From positions 1-31,439 of the IMG/VR virus record IMGVR_UViG_3300037515_000678: a stretch of DNA of 31,439 bases. One strand, given 5' to 3'. A program made the translations under genes and the position numbers. The stretch is from a virus (Duplodnaviria > Caudoviricetes). Each line of letters opens with the position of its first letter. Position 1 is the stretch's first letter. The notes beneath the pieces were generated by a model. The model was not told where the DNA came from. It saw nothing but the letters and a program-made list of their open reading frames with translations, and did no database searches. Below, in pieces: positions 164-23,209 of this stretch.

Positions 164-679
164 TTACTCATCCCAGGTGATTCGGCAGCGAAGGTCCACG
201 GCTGTCGTGGGCGTGGTGGCACGCACCCGCAGGAACTTCGACACGGCAATGATCGGCCGCTCGTCCGGCATCCACACCCGCTCGTACGTCAGCGGCGACT
301 CGCCGGAACCAGAGGACAGGCTCACCACGTCGAAGACGCGGGTCGCGGTGGTGGAGCCCTCCGCGGTCGCGGTGTACCCGGTGTTGGCGGTGCCGAGGAT
401 CAGCAGCGACGGCGGCGCACTCGGGTCGAGCGGCTGCACGCCAGCGGCCACGTGGGCCGACACGGTCGCTGCTACGTCGGTCTGTAGCAACTCGATCACG
501 CCGTCGGCACCGGGCGGGTCGTCGAGCGAGAATGCGTACGAGATCAGTTGGATCTGCCTCGTGCTGGGGGTGCTCAGCACGAGCATGGTACGTATGGCTG
601 TGGTGGTCGTGACCGCCTGCTGCGCGGCCGTGGTCGGCATCGGACCATTCCACGCCGAATAGCGGTGCGTCGGACTCAC
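164..679 (-). CDS. Putative virion/minor tail protein (start GTG 679 or ACG 670)
   Basis: Thr/Ala-rich, beta-strand-like sequence (HRYSAWNGPMPTTAAQ...CRITWDE); sits in the tail module. Confidence 0.75.
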   Translation of the reverse strand: MSPTHRYSAWNGPMPTTAAQQAVTTTTAIRTMLVLSTPSTRQIQLISYAFSLDDPPGADGVIELLQTDVAATVSAHVAAGVQPLDPSAPPSLLILGTANTGYTATAEGSTTATRVFDVVSLSSGSGESPLTYERVWMPDERPIIAVSKFLRVRATTPTTAVDLRCRITWDE

Positions 680-4406: not shown

Positions 4407-4820
4407 TCACCCGGACCAGGTTGGGACGGCGCCGTTTGAGAGCACGCCGGGCACCGCGAAGACCAGTTCACCCGAGTCCGACCGGGACAGCGGGTAATCG
4501 GTGAACAGCACGGTCGGGGCGAGCGTCTTCGCGGCGACCACCATCGTCACCAGCCGTGCGACCGAAGTGGACGGGACGGTCTTGAAGACGTCGTGCGCGC
4601 CGGTGGTCGCGGTGTCGTTGAAGACGCCGTTCAGCGTGATGCTGAAATCGGCGAGGAGGAGAAGCCGCTCCATCGCGAGCTTGTCGATGCCCGTCACGTC
4701 CTGGACGGCTCTCGGCGTGCTGAATTGCAGGTTGGTGATGTCGTTCTTGATTGCCCTCTGAACGCTGCCGCTATCGTCTACGGATAACGTCGTCCACCCA
4801 ATGCCCGAGGTCTTCGCGAT
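4407..4820 (-). CDS. Tail tube/major tail protein, probable ATC start
   Basis: (M)AKTSGIGWTTLSVDD..DVTGIDKLAMERLLLLADFSITLNGVF; SD GAGGGG 9 nt before ATC; immediately upstream of the chaperone. Confidence 0.8.
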   Translation of the reverse strand: MAKTSGIGWTTLSVDDSGSVQRAIKNDITNLQFSTPRAVQDVTGIDKLAMERLLLLADFSITLNGVFNDTATTGAHDVFKTVPSTSVARLVTMVVAAKTLAPTVLFTDYPLSRSDSGELVFAVPGVLSNGAVPTWSG

Positions 4821-4825
4821 GAGAC

Positions 4826-5296
4826 TCAGCCCCTCTCGATCAGCCGGCCGAGCCGGTCCTGGTTGGTCTGGAAGTCGTCGAGCCAAGGGTCCGGGCCGGA
4901 ATGCCGGACAGGCTCGGTGCCGCGCGGATTTCCGCGCCAGTCGCCGCCGCGGACGACGTACAGCTCCGGCCGCTCCAGCGGCACCTTGTGCGGCGAAGCG
5001 AAGCACCGCTGCCCGGCGGCGAACGTGAACGTGGTGACCGTGCCGCCGGTCCGGTCCTCGGTGTAGCCGCGGCGGGCGACGTTGCGGATGTAGTGCGCCT
5101 GCCGCGCGCCGAGGTCGGTGGCCTCGTCGACGGCGGTCGCCCAGCCGCGCAGGTAGGCCGCGCAGTCGGCTTCCTCGCAGGTGCCGTCCCGCCAGTGGGT
5201 GGCCAGCGGGGACGCGACCTGGAAGGTGCGGTAGCTCTCAGCCGGGAGGTTCGGCGCGATCCGCTGGCCGTCCGGGCTGGGCACGGTGCCGGCCAT
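4826..5296 (-). CDS. Conserved tail-region protein, 156 aa
   Basis: ATG coupled by TGATG; CEEADC..C..H cluster; lies between tube-like genes. Confidence 0.8.
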   Translation of the reverse strand: MAGTVPSPDGQRIAPNLPAESYRTFQVASPLATHWRDGTCEEADCAAYLRGWATAVDEATDLGARQAHYIRNVARRGYTEDRTGGTVTTFTFAAGQRCFASPHKVPLERPELYVVRGGDWRGNPRGTEPVRHSGPDPWLDDFQTNQDRLGRLIERG

Positions 5297-5733
5297 CAGA
5301 AGGCCGTGGCGAGCACATCTCGGTGGGTAAGCAAGTAGGCCGCCGCTGCCATCAGGCGGTCCACGTCCTCGCCGAGTGCGCCGATGCCGGTATTGCAGCC
5401 GTGGCAGAGCAGCGCCCGCACGACTCCCGTCTCGTGGTCATGGTCGACGTGCCACGCACCCTTGCCGCCAGGGTCGGTGCTATGGCAGATCGCGCAGCGT
5501 CCACCCTGCCTGGCCAGGAGCGCGTCAAACTCGGCCAGGCTGAGGCCGTACTTGCTGCGCAGGTGCCCGGTGCGGCCGTGCAGCGGATCGGCAAGGCGCT
5601 TGTCGCGTTGATATTCGCGAGACCTTGCACGTTCGCAGTCTGCGCAGTGGCCGTAATAACCATCTCGACCTGCGGGGTGCCGATAGAACAGGTCGAGAGC
5701 CTTGGCCGCACCGCATTTGCTGCATGTCCTCAC
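5296..5733 (-). CDS. Endonuclease VII-family free-standing nuclease
   Basis: N-terminal CSKC..CADC; KYGL..QGGRCAIC..HVDHDHETGVVRALLCHGCNTGIG Endo VII signature; lower GC than neighbours. Confidence 0.9.
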   Translation of the reverse strand: MRTCSKCGAAKALDLFYRHPAGRDGYYGHCADCERARSREYQRDKRLADPLHGRTGHLRSKYGLSLAEFDALLARQGGRCAICHSTDPGGKGAWHVDHDHETGVVRALLCHGCNTGIGALGEDVDRLMAAAAYLLTHRDVLATAF

Positions 5734-10064: not shown

Positions 10065-11630
10065 TCAGCCCTGCGAGGTGACCGCGTAGTCGAAGCCCAG
10101 CACCGCATCGCCCACCGCGGCGACGGAGCTGGACACGGTGAACGCCGTAGCCGACTTCGCGCTCACGTACAGCCCGGCAGCAGCAGCGGCCGCAGTGGTC
10201 GGGGTGATGACGACCGCCGCGGGGGCCCGGCCGAGACCGGACCCGAACGTCACCACGGCCACCGCACCCGCGGCCGGGACGGCGACGGCAGTTGCGGACA
10301 CCGCGCCCGCGTGGTCGGTCGGCGACGTCGAGGCGATCGACTGCGTCTGCGCGCCCGCAGCGACCGTGGCGACGGTGCCGAGGTCCACGGTGGCGTCCAC
10401 ATTCCACGTGGTCCCGACCGTGCCGAGGATCTTGTTGTTCCGACCCCAGACCCGCAACGTCCCGGACGCCCGATTGAGCCGGTACGCGGTGTAGACGCTG
10501 GACCCGGAGACCGCTTCCTGGCTGACGCAGTTGTCGTGGAAGAGGACCGTCGCCACATTGCTGGCGTCGGTGTGGACGTTGAATGCGCGGTACGCGAACC
10601 CCTGCTGGTTGATGCTGTTGTTCGCGACCACGTTGTCATGAACGAAGCTGGGCCTCGTGCCGCCGGTCAGGAACATCAACAGCCCGACGTACGCGGCGAC
10701 CAGAAGCGGCTGCCACGCCGTCGGGCTCGACGACGGGGTGTTCCCCAGGTTGCTGTCGATCAGTGAGTAGTAGGCCACCCCGCCGGACAGGACCGGCGCG
10801 TACCGGTCGTACGTGGTCCCGGCCGCGTAGGCGATGCTGCCGCTGCCCGTGACCCTGCCGAACGACTCCAGGTAGTTGTCGTGGATCCGGGTGGCGTGGG
10901 CGCCGCGAGTGGTGATGTGGTTGTGCCCGGTCGCGTAAACGTGGCAGCCCGAGATCTCCCACCCGACCGAGGTTTCCAGGTGAATGCCGTCCATGCCGCT
11001 GAAACCGACGACGCAGTCCCGCAGGAATCCGTCGGACACCGCGGACGCGCCGGCACCATTCCTGATCCAGATGCCGTGCATTCCCGGCGCGTCGACCAGC
11101 ACCCGATCCAGCCGGCATTCGAAGCCGGGCCCGGCCAGGTCCCCGCCGTTGCGGCGCTCGTCGGTCAGGATCAGGCCGGCGCCGCGGGGGTTGATGATGT
11201 TCAGGTCGTGGGCGTTGCCCCGGAAGTTCGCCATCACCAGGCCGTGGCCGGCGCCCGCGGTCTGCGCCGACTTGTTCCCGTCGATGATCAGGTGGTCGAC
11301 CTCGATCGGCGCGTCCAGCTGGGTGGCGGTGGTCGAGTCGTACGCCTCCGCCACCAGCATCGCGTCCAGGTTCGCGGCGGCCGCCTGCTGGAGGATCGCG
11401 CCGCCGAGCGCCGTCGTACTGGACGTCGGCGACGTCCGCGACCCGTTGCTGGGGTGGGTGGAGGTGTACCGCCGGTTCGGCTTGAGGACCACCGTGGAAC
11501 TGATCGAGTAGACGCCGTTCGGGAAGACGACCTCGTCGCCCGGGACCGACGAATCGATGGCCGCCTGGATCGCCGACGAGGTGAGCCCCCCGACGAGCAC
11601 AGGCGGCCGGTAGCGCTGCAGGACGCTCAC
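10065..11630 (-). CDS. Right-handed beta-helix (pectate-lyase-3-like) glycan depolymerase/spike
   Basis: SSAIQAAIDS..VVFPNGVY start motif; IDGNK; repeated GIxL/I..HDN rungs; C-terminal beta domain. Confidence 0.8.
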   Translation of the reverse strand: MSVLQRYRPPVLVGGLTSSAIQAAIDSSVPGDEVVFPNGVYSISSTVVLKPNRRYTSTHPSNGSRTSPTSSTTALGGAILQQAAAANLDAMLVAEAYDSTTATQLDAPIEVDHLIIDGNKSAQTAGAGHGLVMANFRGNAHDLNIINPRGAGLILTDERRNGGDLAGPGFECRLDRVLVDAPGMHGIWIRNGAGASAVSDGFLRDCVVGFSGMDGIHLETSVGWEISGCHVYATGHNHITTRGAHATRIHDNYLESFGRVTGSGSIAYAAGTTYDRYAPVLSGGVAYYSLIDSNLGNTPSSSPTAWQPLLVAAYVGLLMFLTGGTRPSFVHDNVVANNSINQQGFAYRAFNVHTDASNVATVLFHDNCVSQEAVSGSSVYTAYRLNRASGTLRVWGRNNKILGTVGTTWNVDATVDLGTVATVAAGAQTQSIASTSPTDHAGAVSATAVAVPAAGAVAVVTFGSGLGRAPAAVVITPTTAAAAAAGLYVSAKSATAFTVSSSVAAVGDAVLGFDYAVTSQG

Positions 11631-12061
11631 GTCCGGGCGTCAGCCCGCCTGGTCGGAGCGCCACCCGTCGAACTTGCAGTGGAGGACCCCGCCCGGGCCG
11701 GCTTCGAGCGGCTCCCCGTCGTTCGGGCACGCTTCGGGGGGTCGGTCGCGGGCGGCTCGCCGCTCGGCGGCTGCCTCGCGGGCGATGTCGACGAGCTGCT
11801 CCCACGAGATGGCCGCTCACCCTCTTCCTCATCGTCGGCGTAGACCGGCTCGGACGTCAGGTCGGCGACGGTGCCGACCGTCACCTCGGCCGGCGGGATG
11901 TAGCCGACCTCACCCGGCCCGGCATCGGCGTTCGTCGGTCCGCCGTGCACCGTGATCTTCGGCACCGTCATCTCCTCTCCCAGACCGGGTGTGCCGCAGG
12001 CACGGCACCGGGACAGCCGCACGCTGTACCCGGTCCCGCACCCGCGGCACACCCACACCAT
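11627..12061 (-). CDS. Zn-ribbon protein with a disordered Ser/Thr-rich tail
   Basis: ATG 12061 by TGATG overlap; CRGC..CRAC followed by PKITVHGGPTN; stop coupled to the next gene. Confidence 0.7.
   Translation of the reverse strand: MVWVCRGCGTGYSVRLSRCRACGTPGLGEEMTVPKITVHGGPTNADAGPGEVGYIPPAEVTVGTVADLTSEPVYADDEEEGERPSRGSSSSTSPARQPPSGEPPATDPPKRARTTGSRSKPARAGSSTASSTGGAPTRRADART
11640..11810 (-). CDS. Nested 56-aa Zn-binding protein, ATC start (absent from the ORF track)
   Basis: (M)SWEQLVDIAREAAAERRAARDRPPEACPNDGEPLEAGPGGVLHCKFDGWRSDQAG; in-frame TGA three codons upstream; SD GAAGAGGG 9 nt before ATC. Confidence 0.7.
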   Translation of the reverse strand: MSWEQLVDIAREAAAERRAARDRPPEACPNDGEPLEAGPGGVLHCKFDGWRSDQAG

Positions 12062-18446: not shown

Positions 18447-18718
18447 CGGACCACCCCGATCTGCTCGGCCGCGACCACCAGCACCCGACCCCGCAGAGGC
18501 GTCTCCTCGATCGCCTCCTGGACGTGGTCCAGCTCGGCCGACGACGTGTCGGGCCGGCACCGGATCACCAGGGTGTCCCCCGGACCCACGACCAGCGCGG
18601 ACTCCACCACGGCCGGCGGCAACGGGACGTGCACCGGCCCGGCCGCCGCAGGCACGACCCGCTCGTCGTCGTCGTACGGCCCCGCGTCCTCACCCCGGGT
18701 CGTTCCGCCGCCGACCAT
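18443..18718 (-). CDS. Hypothetical protein, 91 aa
   Basis: TGATG coupling to TerL; LVVGPGDTLVIR. Confidence 0.65.
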   Translation of the reverse strand: MVGGGTTRGEDAGPYDDDERVVPAAAGPVHVPLPPAVVESALVVGPGDTLVIRCRPDTSSAELDHVQEAIEETPLRGRVLVVAAEQIGVVR

Positions 18719-20085
18719 CAGCCGAGCACCCGGATCCTCGGCCGCGCACCCAGGTCACGCTCGGCGCAGAGATAGCGGATCCCGTCGGCCCCATGATCAT
18801 CCTGCTTCACCGGCGCCTCCTTCAGCTTCTTCCCCCCACCCGTGTCCCAGATGTAGCCCGGGACCTCCTCCGCCGTGCACGCCGGCTTCCCCGCGTCCAC
18901 CAACTCCTGGTCCCGCTCCAGCAGCGCGTCCCGCATCAGCACCAGCCGCGGCCTGCCGTCACCCGCCGGCCGGAGCCGGGCCTGAACCGCCTGGATGCCG
19001 TCGGACACGCTCTTCCTCGCGGCGACGGTGCCCATGCCAAGGTGCCGCTCCAGCGTCGCCCGGTCCTCCGCGTCGTGATCGCAGATGACGGCCCGCGGCC
19101 GCGGCTCGATCCACGTGCAGTCGCGGTGCCGCTCCGCCGGGTCGGCCGCCGACTGATCGCAGGTCCCGCCGTGGACCGCGGCGAGGATCGTCCGGGCGTG
19201 GTCCTCCACCAGCCGCCGCGAGTGGTAGATCTCCCTGACGAGGTAAAGCCGGCCGTCGCCGTCCTCGGCCCAATCCTGCCAACAGAAAGGCGCGGTGTAA
19301 CCGAAGTCGACCGCCCACCAGCGGGTCCAGTCCGGCGGCACGTCGAACCGGTCGACCAGGTGGATCGACTCGTCCCACGATTCGTAAATCTGGCCTTCCG
19401 CGGCAACCCATCTCCCCCACCGCATCCGCTGGTACCGCGGGCCGGAGAGGCCGTCGAGCCGGTCCAGGTACGTCCGGCCGTACTCCGTCCACTCGCCGTT
19501 CTGGTAGAGGCGGGGGTTGTCCTCGTGGCGGCTGTACAGCATGGTGCAGCGCCCGGAGTCCGCCCTGACCTTCAGGTGGTGGGTAGGCGGCCCGGGGTTG
19601 GTCGCGAGGATCAATTGCTGGTAGGAAGCCAGCCGCCCATTCCGGAGACGGGTAGTGATCATGTCGAGATCTTCGGGCGTGGTCTCAATTGCTTCGTCCA
19701 CGAAAGAGATATCATATTCGGTACTCAACAAACGCGAGGCACGGTCAAGTCCCCCAACGACAATGACCGAGCCATTAATGTAGCGGAAGCTCGCCGGCTC
19801 CTGGGCAGAACCTCCGTAGAAGCTCAAGAGCCCGGCGGCCAGAGCCTCGCCCGCGACCTTCTGCCGGAACGTCACCAGGGTGGACGCGGTGAGCGAGGCA
19901 TGTGTCTTGCGGACGATGAGCGTTCGGACTTTCGGTGTAGCCAGGCACGCGAGGTGGACTTTCATCAAGGCGCCCACCGATTTTCCAGTACCAGCGCCGC
20001 CGCTCAGCAGGACTTCATTCTGCTTGTTCCTGAAAAGCTCAAGCACGGCGCCTCTGGGCTCATACCTGACGACGGTGTCACCCAC
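18718..20085 (-). CDS. terL: Terminase large subunit
   Basis: Walker A GGAGTGKS; Walker B ISFVDEA; ATNP; nuclease motifs AVDFGY and [10 protein letters not shown]; GTG 20085 after GGAG. Confidence 0.95.
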
Positions 20086-21085
20086 GGTGGTTCTCCAGGT
20101 AGGCCGCCGCCGCACGGAGGCGTTCAGGGGCGTCTTCAAACTTCCCTAGCCCCTGGTTGCATGCCATGCACAGGAAGCCCCGCACGCAACGTCCGCACGA
20201 GGTGCCCGGGTCGGGACAGCACGTGTGGTCATGGTCTACCGCCAGTAGGCGTCCCGAACTGCACTGACCCCCGCAGATGGCGCACCCGCCGCCCTGAGCG
20301 GTTAGCCGCTCCTGGTACTGGTCCCAGGTGATTCCATAGTTGGCCAGCCGGTGCTTGTCCCTGTTGCACTTCCTGCACATGTAGGCCAGCCCATCAGGGT
20401 GCCTACCATTCCGGCCAAACTCGACTTCCGGAAGCCAGATAAGACAGAAGCGGCACAGCTTCCGCCCCTGGTCGTCCCGCTTCAGGTGTGATCGCCATGC
20501 GCGGATCTCGGTCAGGGGCTTTCCGTCGGCCCTCTGCCTGTTATGCGCCTCGCACAGCCCATAAGCGGCCACGTACCGACCACAGTCAATGGAGGCGCAG
20601 ACACTCCGGGGCTTGACGATGACCTTCCCCGGGTCTCCGTGCTTCTTCCACCGGACGTAGTGCATGTCGCACCAGCCACGCTTCAGCGCGGGCTTGTCGC
20701 AAAGCGCAACCGCGCATCGGGAGCGCCCGGTCCCCTCGTCGCGCTGCCACTGGTTGTAGTGCCTACTGCACCATCCGCGGGCAACGTGGGAGCCGTTGCA
20801 TCCGCCGACCTGGCACACGCCGCCGGGGCGCACGGACATGGAGATGCCAGGATCGCCGTGCTTCTGCATTCGCTGGTAGTGCATGCCGCAGAGGCCCTTG
20901 GCCGCCGGGACGTGACCACAGTCCTCGACGATGCACTCAGTGTGCGCTCCGGGCGCGGCCTGTTCCTTAATCTCGGCGGGCCCCGGGTCGCCTGTCTTCT
21001 TCCAGCGTCGATAGTGGGTCCCGCAGTACCCCTTGCAGGAGTGGGGTCGATCGCATCCGGACACAGCACAGGTACGCTGCGACAC
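20078..21085 (-). CDS. Endonuclease VII-family nuclease with five N-terminal Zn-finger repeats
   Basis: Five C-x4-C-x7-GxCxxH repeats, then CRFC..CRKC, then [29 protein letters not shown]; inserted between terS and terL. Confidence 0.9.
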
Positions 21086-21162
21086 GAGGGCACCTCTTCG
21101 CTAGGTGTTCTCCACGCCCCGGGCCGGTTCCAGCCGGCGCCGGGGTTTACTCGCTCATTCTA
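21086..21162 (-). promoter_or_regulatory. Structured leader of the Endo VII gene: TAGAAT -10, hairpin, RBS-occluding hairpin
   Basis: TAGAAT (21162-21157); CCCCGGcGCCGG-ctggaa-CCGGCCCGGGG (21145-21117); CACCT-agcgaag-AGGTG covering the SD. Confidence 0.6.
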
Positions 21163-21163
21163 T

Positions 21164-21640
21164 CTATTTCAGGGCATCCATGTCGGTGCCCACGATCTCG
21201 TACCGCACGGTCCCCGCGGTCGTCGCGTCCAACCTCTGCGGCGCGTCCAGCCCCAGCAGCCGCGCCCGCCGCTGCTCGATGTCGATCAACCGCGCCACCG
21301 CCGCCAGCTCCGGCCCGTCATCCCGCAACGGCTTCCCGTCGTCGTCGCGGATGATCCGCCCGTGGGACACGACGACGTGCAGCCGCTCCAGCACGGTCAC
21401 CGTCGCCCGGGACAGCGCGTCGAGCCGTTCCAACGCCAGCGCCCGGTGATGCTCCGTCGTCTCCGCCAGCTCGGCCCGGTTCGCGTCCAGCGCCCTCGTG
21501 ACGTCCTTGTGGGCGGCGGCCCGGTCCGCGTACCCGAGGGCGTCGGCGATGGCCTGCCACGTCTGACCCTGCGACCGGAGCGCGACCGCCTTGGCCCGGC
21601 GGGCAGCGACCTCGGCCCGCCTTGCCGTGGGTGTGCTCAT
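21164..21640 (-). CDS. terS: Terminase small subunit
   Basis: N-terminal HTH (GQTWQAIADALGY); LERLDAL and RRARLLGLDAP motifs; upstream of TerL. Confidence 0.85.
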   Translation of the reverse strand: MSTPTARRAEVAARRAKAVALRSQGQTWQAIADALGYADRAAAHKDVTRALDANRAELAETTEHHRALALERLDALSRATVTVLERLHVVVSHGRIIRDDDGKPLRDDGPELAAVARLIDIEQRRARLLGLDAPQRLDATTAGTVRYEIVGTDMDALK

Positions 21641-21671
21641 GTTGGCCGGCCTTCTGTGTTGGCCAGAAGTT

Positions 21672-22085
21672 CTATCCCAGCCTGAGCGTGATCCCGCTCG
21701 TCACGTCAGTGAGCGTCACACCCGAGAACCGCAGCGTCATCGGCGGGGAGCAGGACGGCTTGAGGACCGGCGTCAGCGTCAGCGCGCCGACGGCGTGACC
21801 ATTCTGGACCGGAAACGTCCCGGCCACCGAGACGGTCCGCTTGTTGTCGGCCTGCGGGTCGTTGCCGCCCGGGTTGACGCACTGCACCGACGCAGCCAGC
21901 ACGACGTGGACCTGGTCCTCGTCGCCCAACCCGGCTTCCTTGAACGCGACCGTCAGCGACGTGCCGGTGGTGGCGGTGACGCCGGTGGCGGACGCGATGA
22001 AGTGCGGGGAACCGGCCGACGCGGTGGGCACCGTGCCGAGGGACAGCGCCAGGGCGGCGGCGAGGACGGTGAGCAGCTTGCGCAT
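21672..22085 (-). CDS. Secreted protein with a Sec signal peptide, 137 aa
   Basis: MRKLLTVLAAALALSLGTVPTASA; beta-rich mature part containing two Cys. Confidence 0.8.
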   Translation of the reverse strand: MRKLLTVLAAALALSLGTVPTASAGSPHFIASATGVTATTGTSLTVAFKEAGLGDEDQVHVVLAASVQCVNPGGNDPQADNKRTVSVAGTFPVQNGHAVGALTLTPVLKPSCSPPMTLRFSGVTLTDVTSGITLRLG

Positions 22086-22120
22086 GAGGGATCCCCTACG
22101 TCGGGCCTTGCCTGCTGTAG

Positions 22121-22194
22121 TAGCGCCGGTCAGATTTGAACTGACGACCTCTGGATTATGAGCCCAGCGAGCTACCGAACTGCTCCACGGCGCG
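22121..22194 (-). tRNA. tRNA-Met(CAT), initiator (fMet) type; CCA not encoded
   Basis: Cloverleaf CGCGCCG TG GAGC AGTTCGGTA GCTC G CTGGG CTCATAA TCCAG AGGTC GTCAG TTCAAAT CTGAC CGGCGCT A; C1xU72 mismatch; A11-U24 pair. Confidence 0.93.
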
Positions 22195-22232: not shown

Positions 22233-22262
22233 ATCTTCGGTCACGCCGCTGACCTGCGTCAA
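22233..22262 (-). promoter_or_regulatory. Candidate late-operon promoter
   Basis: TTGACG-18 nt-GAAGAT in the gap before the tRNA and packaging genes. Confidence 0.4.
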
Positions 22263-22300: not shown

Positions 22301-23209
22301 TCATGCCGGAACGCCCTCGGTGTGCCCGTCCGGGCGAAGTCGCCGCAGGGTCCGCTCCGCATCCACCACCGAGTAGCGGGCCGGCCGGCCACCGTCGGAC
22401 ACCCAGCGGTCGGCCTGCGCCCACCGGCGGATCGTGCGGGCCGGGACACCCCAGAGCCCGGACAGCTCGGAGTCGGTGAGCCGGACGTCCTTGTCGACCA
22501 GCCGGAGCCACCGCACCGGCGGCACCTCACGGCCGCACTCGTCGCAGGTGGCGTCGGAGAGGTGGTCGAGCCCGTCGCCGGGGAGGGTGACCACGAGCGT
22601 GCCGGGGCAGCGGTACACGGCGCGGGTGGCGACGTCGCACCACAGCGACAGGCCGCACGGAGCGACGGGCCGGCGCCGGTCACCACCCGGGTGCGCGACC
22701 CGGAACGCGTCCCAGTGGACGGCGTCGATGCCGGCGTGGAAATCGCCCACCCAGGTCTGCTCGCAGATCCAGTCGAGCATGGCGCCGCGCCGGCCCAGCA
22801 GGGAGCCGGCCATGGCCGGGACGGTGTCGTCCGGCAGGGCGAACCCTCGGTCCTCGGCGACCGCGCGGCACCAGGTGGAGAGCATGGTGCGGATCTCGGC
22901 GCGGGCGTTGGCGGGCTGGTCGCGCAGGTCGAGGCCGGCGTGTCCACCGGTCGAGATCTCGTTGCGGCCGCCGGCGGCGGCGTGGGCCTCGACGAGCCGC
23001 TCGTCGAGGCCGGGCAGCTCGATCAGGTCCAGGGCCATGGCCTTCCGGCAGCCGGCGCAGACCAGCGTCCCGTCCAGCACCCGCCGGGGCCGGCACGGGG
23101 CGCGACGGTGCTCGATGACGCAGCGGTACCTGCCCGGGATCCGGGACTGCACGTCCAGGCAGGGGGCGCGGTCGCAGTCCGGGCAGGTCTCGCCGTCCAG
23201 GCCCGTCAC
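22301..23209 (-). CDS. Zn-finger/HTH DNA-binding protein, putative late transcription regulator
   Basis: Multiple CxxC motifs; C-terminal HTH LTDSELSGLWGVPARTIRRWAQ; last gene before the late operon. Confidence 0.7.
   Translation of the reverse strand: MTGLDGETCPDCDRAPCLDVQSRIPGRYRCVIEHRRAPCRPRRVLDGTLVCAGCRKAMALDLIELPGLDERLVEAHAAAGGRNEISTGGHAGLDLRDQPANARAEIRTMLSTWCRAVAEDRGFALPDDTVPAMAGSLLGRRGAMLDWICEQTWVGDFHAGIDAVHWDAFRVAHPGGDRRRPVAPCGLSLWCDVATRAVYRCPGTLVVTLPGDGLDHLSDATCDECGREVPPVRWLRLVDKDVRLTDSELSGLWGVPARTIRRWAQADRWVSDGGRPARYSVVDAERTLRRLRPDGHTEGVPA

Follow-up and report, generated by a model that had tools for sequence, protein, structure and literature searches.

Does an initiator tRNA carried by an actinobacterial virus, in which the third of the three hallmark G-C pairs of the anticodon stem is replaced by G31.U39, serve a purpose of its own? 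The window, i.e. the whole stretch of DNA analysed here, covers the whole of a virus record of 31,439 nt with about 71% GC. A first-pass annotation of its tRNA gene had offered two roles, a partner of the non-AUG starts of virion genes or a nuclease-resistant replacement for the host initiator tRNA.

Genomic context of the tRNA gene

The minus-strand genes of this 31-kb contig begin with DNA methyltransferases, a replication initiator and RuvC, followed by a phrog_908 gene. Next in order are the tRNA gene, a 137-aa ORF, a terminase small subunit-like gene, an HNH gene, terL, and genes for the portal, a ClpP-type protease, the capsid and the tail. The region around the tRNA contains the following features:

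22301..23209, minus strand: phrog_908 gene (phrog_908, E 1.6e-12) with a weak C-terminal HTH (HTH_23, E 0.0024, below the cut-off)
22233..22262, minus strand: candidate promoter (TTGACG, 18 nt, GAAGAT), read by eye and below the scan threshold
22121..22194, minus strand: initiator-type tRNA-Met(CAU) gene with C1xU72, G2-C71, C3-G70, A11-U24, G29-C41, G30-C40 and G31.U39
22155, minus strand: U39, pairing with G31 (22163)
21672..22085, minus strand: 137-aa orphan ORF between the tRNA and terminase genes, with a signal-peptide-like N-terminus by eye
21164..21640, minus strand: HTH protein, phrog_645 (PHROG label 'Rnase E'), directly upstream of terL in relatives
20078-21085, minus strand: HNH/endonuclease VII gene
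18718-20085, minus strand: terminase large subunit gene with a GTG start

Relatives of the capsid protein in named genomes (56-65% identity) derive mostly from Streptomyces and Kitasatospora prophages, and the host is therefore likely an actinomycete. The virus is an actinobacterial siphophage with the tRNA sitting between the phrog_908 gene and the terminase genes. The placement of the tRNA as first element of a late operon, as proposed in the first-pass annotation, fits the gene order of the late region; operon status is itself deduced from that order. A promoter scan upstream of the tRNA found no site above the threshold, and repeats around the gene look like chance. The phrog_908 gene likely encodes a late regulator, as its position suggests, and a search for relatives through its protein confirmed none. 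The 137-aa ORF belongs to no family and has no homolog in the loci of the fetched relatives, while the HTH protein encoded at 21164..21640 is the likely terminase small subunit. Neither the tRNA nor the 137-aa ORF occurs in the relatives examined, so both appear to be accessory cargo. Among the structural genes of the window, three HNH or endonuclease VII genes are inserted (676-1299, 5296-5733 and 20078-21085, all on the minus strand).

Identity and structure of the tRNA

ARAGORN called a tRNA-Met(cat) at 22120-22194 (minus strand) and Rfam RF00005 matched 22121-22194 with 59.7 bits (E 1e-10), both in agreement with a cloverleaf carrying a CAU anticodon. The 1:72 mismatch is accompanied by G2-C71, C3-G70 and A73, and the D stem (GAGC/GCTC) contains A11-U24; the initiator determinants C1xU72 and A11-U24 named in the first-pass annotation are thus borne out by the sequence. 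CCA is not encoded. The anticodon loop is CTCATAA and the stem CTGGG/TCCAG, which was likewise read correctly, including the G-U at base 22155. Strictly defined initiators have three consecutive G-C pairs (29-41, 30-40 and 31-39). In the phage tRNA the third of these is G.U, and it therefore counts not as the canonical form but as a variant with initiator-like function. The middle pair G30-C40, described as essential in PMC5389676, is kept.

The exceptional status that had been attributed to G31-U39 was overstated. According to PMC5389676, G30 is the essential base of the E. coli initiator stem, the GC/GC/gu stem occurs naturally in mycoplasmas, and the '3rd GU' tRNA-fMet keeps E. coli alive as its sole initiator and is absent from the cold- or minimal-medium-defective mutants listed there. 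These mycoplasma and E. coli metY variants have an anticodon-stem variant identical to that of the phage tRNA. The phage gene differs from them in being an accessory copy, supplementing a host tRNA that is presumably canonical, in a phylum where the variant was found in 1 of 365 cellular genomes (see below).

Compared with the initiator tRNA of Streptomyces (L250), used as a stand-in for that of the host, 61 of 74 bases are identical and 13 differ. Both share C1xU72, G2-C71, C3-G70, A11-U24, the CAU anticodon, G29-C41 and G30-C40; the phage tRNA is distinguished by G31.U39, by its location on a phage and by five acceptor- and T-stem pairs with compensated changes, which account for 10 of the 13 differences. 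One further difference lies in the D loop, one strengthens a pair by converting G49.U65 to G-C, and U39 is the sole pair-weakening one. Five compensated pairs with U39 alone as a weakening change point to selection acting on the structure of the tRNA. In an RNA fold model of the unmodified molecule, which takes in neither modifications nor tertiary contacts, a mispaired fold is favoured over the U39 cloverleaf (-26.1 kcal/mol) by 1.1 kcal/mol. The C39 version folds best as a cloverleaf, with -28.9 kcal/mol, so that U39 costs 2.8 kcal/mol. The recognition elements of MetRS and formylase, as listed in PMC7949028, are present in the phage tRNA sequence. Taken at the level of sequence, the phage initiator-type tRNA likely works. 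A contig from run X1 (2,499 nt, depth 7.5) spans 21000-22185, base 22155 among them, and agrees at every letter; as this run is perhaps the source sample, its support for U39 is not independent.

Distribution of anticodon-stem variants

In IMG/VR, a search with a GCTCG-NN-arm pattern, which represents one D-arm motif, retrieved 40 stretches with G31.U39 (38 tRNAs, 34 distinct, 36 without a strong 1-72 pair), 40 with G30.U40 (39 tRNAs, 33 distinct) and 56 with A31-U39 (55 tRNAs, 48 distinct). For G29.U41 a single stretch was retrieved, which is not a tRNA. Canonical stretches number about 1300, an estimate from part of the collection that probably includes host-derived att copies. Roughly 9 in 10 motif-bearing viral tRNAs keep C39 and about 1 in 11 alters the second or third G-C pair. 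Since G30.U40 and A31-U39 are equally common in viruses, U39 does not stand alone: several changes recurrently replace one of the three G-C pairs. The initiator-bodied viral tRNAs with G30.U40 or A31-U39 are found at IMG/VR loci L308-L403.

Among 401 Actinomycetota genomes (including 12 flagged as unpublished, which are counted in totals only), an initiator-type arm is present in 365; among the 150 matches listed out of 416, 149 are canonical, and one genome of the 365 combines G31.U39 with an initiator body. Judged from these arms, the cellular initiator tRNAs of actinobacteria appear almost invariant. The U39 share is about 2.7% in viruses versus 0.3% in cells (Fisher p = 0.002, relatedness ignored), and the three variants together reach about 9% in viruses, although neither the viral nor the cultured-phage counts are phylogenetically independent. 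An origin of U39 as a trait of the host lineage was considered and rejected: the corresponding 13-mer occurs in 28 of the 401 genomes, but 27 of its 29 matches are not tRNAs according to ARAGORN, and of the remaining two one is initiator-type and the other is not. A follow-up of these 28 genomes that left out the unpublished ones covered 26 of them. The sole genome with a G31.U39 initiator (L304, G392:C43) is possibly incomplete; no canonical copy was found in it, and the neighbouring genes look cellular. A metagenome scan with a 35-base actinobacterial U39 motif yielded 5 loci, whose small number and mostly short length preclude classification.

Among cultured phages, 58 records were matched by the phage tRNA and 19 were inspected, one of which was dropped as apparently elongator-type. 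In the resulting set, chosen by likeness to the phage tRNA, 13 of 18 initiator-like tRNAs are not GGG/CCC and all 18 keep G30-C40. G31.U39 is present in phage Naboo and in the four Gilsonviruses Gilson, Phredrick, MeganTheeKilla and Kenrey, whereas the sister Streptomyces phages Sham and TunaTartare have C39 at the same locus as the Gilsonviruses. Gilsonvirus tRNA-Met shares G31.U39, the 1:72 mismatch, G2-C71 and C3-G70 with the phage tRNA. It differs in its location within a large tRNA cluster of 128-130 kb phages and in having U11-A24 instead of A11-U24, and is therefore initiator-like without being fully typical. The Streptomyces Loccivirinae (L409, L418-L422) include C39/U39 sisters with U11-A24 that form a natural test pair.

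A lone tRNA-Met or tRNA-fMet in the same pre-terminase slot was identified in phiLM21, Nocardia phage P3.1, Clavibacter phage CN1A and an actinobacterial prophage (L010). The first three have their own stem variant or the canonical stem, and only L010 shares G31.U39; as in the window phage, its tRNA follows a phrog_908 gene. In three unrelated high-GC viral contigs, a phrog_1128 gene without a Pfam match lies at most 2 kb from a U39 initiator tRNA:

L003:5057-5593: phrog_1128 gene
L014:7854-8399: phrog_1128 gene
L025:6064-6624: phrog_1128 gene

Non-AUG starts in the phage and its relatives

The proposed partnership between the tRNA and ATC- or ACG-started virion genes concerns three genes of the window, which were compared across 87 loci fetched around capsid relatives with flanks of up to 10 kb:

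11640..11810, minus strand: 56-aa Cys/His ORF with an ATC start after a Shine-Dalgarno sequence, inside ORF 12061-11627 in an alternate frame
4407..4820, minus strand: tail-region gene with an ATC start that is particular to the window phage
164..679, minus strand: gene with an uncertain start, either ACG at 670 (aligned with the ATG of relatives) or GTG at 679, which overlaps the stop codon of the HNH gene

Homologs of the 56-aa ORF were identified in 73 of the 87 loci, with 60 distinct sequences at the start site (ATC 47, GTG 4, ATG 2, other 7). Nine of the 12 homologous proteins inspected begin with Met at the start column, and ATC at 11810 is thus most likely the true start. For the gene starting at 4820, the 43 distinct sites of relatives have ATG (36), GTG (4) or ATT (2), with one unaligned; three weak 'IAK' matches (L070, L095, L121) belong to the paralogous major tail gene. 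An ACG start at 670 is not established: a GTG forming part of a GTGA overlap stands three codons upstream, and in each of 15 distinct relatives a canonical codon is found between -4 and +3 codons. The premise of non-AUG starts therefore stands for 11810 and 4820, where ATC is supported by homologs, and is doubtful for ACG at 670. Sporadic ATT, ATC or ACG codons occur at the start columns of the 4820 and 670 genes, in the window and in L065, L081, L089 and L102; in many cases a TGA precedes them by 5-6 nt and a GTG by three codons.

No tRNA-Met was found by ARAGORN in any of the 87 related loci. Of the 52 loci with the small terminase gene, 44 extend at least 2 kb upstream of it; none of these has a tRNA there, and 37 of them have the ATC start. 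Likewise, 12 of 16 related virus records that are at least 90% complete have ATC, with 0 initiator-type arms. A search of 35 whole virus records for a purine-pyrimidine CAU arm returned one match, the 3' part of an Ile2-type tRNA; this pattern is blind to pyrimidines at positions 29-31, and the pre-terminase slot is covered by the ARAGORN scan. Co-occurrence of the tRNA with non-AUG starts is thus absent in the related phages examined. As most relatives have ATC without the tRNA, the ATC start is independent of it, which, as far as the relatives go, is what the first-pass annotation itself had set as refuting the partnership. In addition, native E. coli tRNA-fMet initiates at AUC with 352/7314 and 631/7838 of the AUG level (5-8%) and at ACG with about 1% of AUG, as given in PMC3643588; no special tRNA is therefore needed for ATC starts.

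In a weaker form of the proposal, the U39 initiator would not be required but would boost ATC initiation late in infection. The yeast C39U change increases the UUG:AUG ratio about 2.5-fold (PMC3950347), and the second ATC of the window, at 4820, stands where 36 distinct relatives have ATG. Like C39U in yeast, G31.U39 might accordingly make bacterial initiation less accurate and, once acquired late, raise the output of the ancestral ATC-started gene in the head region and let the ATC of the tail gene be tolerated. If this were true, it would be the first viral tRNA retuning start-codon choice. Against it stand the 47 relatives' sites with ATC and no tRNA, the related locus L081 with two non-canonical starts and no initiator arm, the use of AUC by the native E. 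coli tRNA (PMC3643588), and the observation in PMC3950347 that the related yeast change A31:U39 gave no help to AUA or ACG. We consider both the late boost and the proposed loss of fidelity improbable.

Possible roles of the variant tRNA

We tentatively favour, with slightly less than even confidence, a working spare initiator tRNA that is likely made late and whose loosened third pair would likely render it a poorer nuclease substrate. The tRNA would be transcribed with the late genes, receive its CCA, be charged by the host MetRS and subsequently formylated, and the resulting additional fMet-tRNA would be used at ordinary AUG and GUG starts. G31.U39 would make it less readily cut by those host nucleases whose cleavage site in the host's own initiator is beside position 39. 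Enterobacterial VapC had been said to cleave tRNA-fMet at the 38/39 junction, and PMC4105405 indeed places the enteric VapC cut between A38 and C39. VapC recognition depends on both sequence and structure (PMC7180214), and cleavage of T5 tRNA-Lys by AriB is abolished by a single change at position 39 (PMC12409363). That phage tRNAs in general serve to escape nucleases has been put forward as a hypothesis in PMC10264068. As in the nuclease-evading tRNAs of these studies, among them T5 tRNA-Lys facing PARIS AriB, the change in the phage-encoded tRNA studied here is at position 39, by an anticodon-arm cut site; unlike T5 tRNA-Lys it is an initiator and not an elongator, and evasion is a candidate role. 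C39U falls at the enteric VapC cut site, in a comparison with a Streptomyces stand-in for the host. To judge from its title, a paper cited in PMC10264068 deals with fMet-inactivating VapCs of an actinobacterium. Our literature searches did not find initiator tRNA discussed in print as a target of antiphage nucleases in actinomycetes.

The excess of the variant in viruses over actinobacterial cells agrees with this candidate role, as does the U39 initiator in the same pre-terminase slot of the unrelated prophage L010; the viral excess is equally expected from relaxed selection on an accessory copy. The majority of viral motif tRNAs that keep C39, including the lone pre-terminase copy of Nocardia phage P3.1, count against escape, and so does the folding cost of U39 in the model. 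According to PMC10264068, phages of enteric hosts generally avoid encoding tRNA-fMet, and a C1 mycobacteriophage tRNA-fMet in its supplement keeps C39. A lesser but substantial possibility is that the phage carries a plain late-phase initiator supplement, in an accessory copy of which C39U is near-neutral. Initiator supply could be limiting, as most actinobacterial genomes sampled have a single initiator arm. The variant is functional in E. coli and found naturally in mycoplasmas (PMC5389676), phage initiator tRNAs vary at many positions, and the sister phages Sham and TunaTartare (C39) and Gilson, Phredrick, MeganTheeKilla and Kenrey (U39) differ at the same locus, all of which is consistent with drift. 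Drift accounts less well for the uncompensated U39 amid otherwise compensated stem changes, and for the frequency of G30.U40, which is costly in E. coli (PMC5389676) and nonetheless as common in viruses as G31.U39 (39 versus 38 tRNAs). The lack of a G29.U41 tRNA likewise gives an uneven pattern unlike equal C-to-U drift, although functional constraint could produce such unevenness as well. The leading reading is a functional spare initiator tRNA that host tRNA nucleases have likely shaped; tolerated drift follows closely. The sister Streptomyces phages that differ exactly at C39/U39 offer a ready natural pair for the nuclease-target question. Taken singly, the tRNA gene is the usual kind of phage cargo, and its stem variant is already known to be tolerated; the wider pattern is more useful.

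Three further explanations fit the data less well. The phage might integrate into the host initiator gene, leave it unrestored and replace it with its own copy, the stem change blocking targeting by the integrase. Such tRNA-dependent lysogeny is known for actinophages from PMC10865867, the main text of which does not contain 'fMet', and many hosts have one initiator gene. It nevertheless appears unlikely here, since the 31-kb contig has no integrase, att site or second partial tRNA copy, the gene lies in the packaging region, the lytic Gilsonviruses also carry U39, and the tRNA-derived att-like stretch of one relative comes from an Ile2-type tRNA. This stretch (L261, in record G044, which is shared with L117) consists of the 3' part of the tRNA beginning at the anticodon arm. 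A decaying or misfolded gene of little function, for which the non-cloverleaf lowest-energy fold of the model and the absence of the gene from all relatives examined could be cited, is hard to reconcile with five compensated pairs and the retention of all identity elements; moreover, the gap to the cloverleaf is just 1.1 kcal/mol, in a model that leaves out modifications and tertiary contacts, and we regard decay as very unlikely. A shift to Ile2 identity, in which U39 and C5-G68 would make the tRNA a substrate of TilS that reads AUA, is the least probable. C5-G68 is a TilS element, and it is common to the Streptomyces Ile2-type tRNA and the phage tRNA, as is U39. However, C5 is no commoner among viral U39 tRNAs (3/32) than among canonical ones (6/69, p = 1.0), AUA makes up 2 of 5418 codons in 18 window genes, and the body is initiator-type, lacking the paired 1-72 and the pyrimidine 11-purine 24 of Ile2-type tRNAs. 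On the counts of C5 and the rarity of AUA, this shift was rejected.

A nested ATC-started gene

The 56-aa ORF starting at 11810 lies wholly within the part of the upstream ORF (11627-12061, minus strand) that encodes its Ser/Thr-rich tail, and the nested ATC-started ORF is conserved across a large family of actinomycete siphophages (L041-L125). It is probably a more novel feature of the contig than the tRNA. Neither profile nor sequence searches with the nested protein found a cultured-phage match or a family, and no literature on an ATC-started nested gene was found by title or abstract start. In 47 of the 51 distinct ATC cases (the window included), the outer frame has no stop along the nested ORF and mostly ends 4-28 nt beyond it. 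Of the 56-codon stretches in 12 other genes of the window, 28% are open in this way, a contrast that is inflated by the relatedness of the sequences. An origin of the ORF as a frameshift product was also considered and is disfavoured, as many relatives have an in-frame TGA two codons upstream; moreover, ATG or GTG occupies the same column in 6 relatives, and Met begins 9 of the 12 proteins inspected. An ATC start may keep a minor protein low, and the nested gene offers a second line of inquiry, into how non-AUG starts control proteins of the virion region. In those cases in which the next base is A, the use of ATC has a simple explanation, since an ATG would create a TGA in the outer frame.
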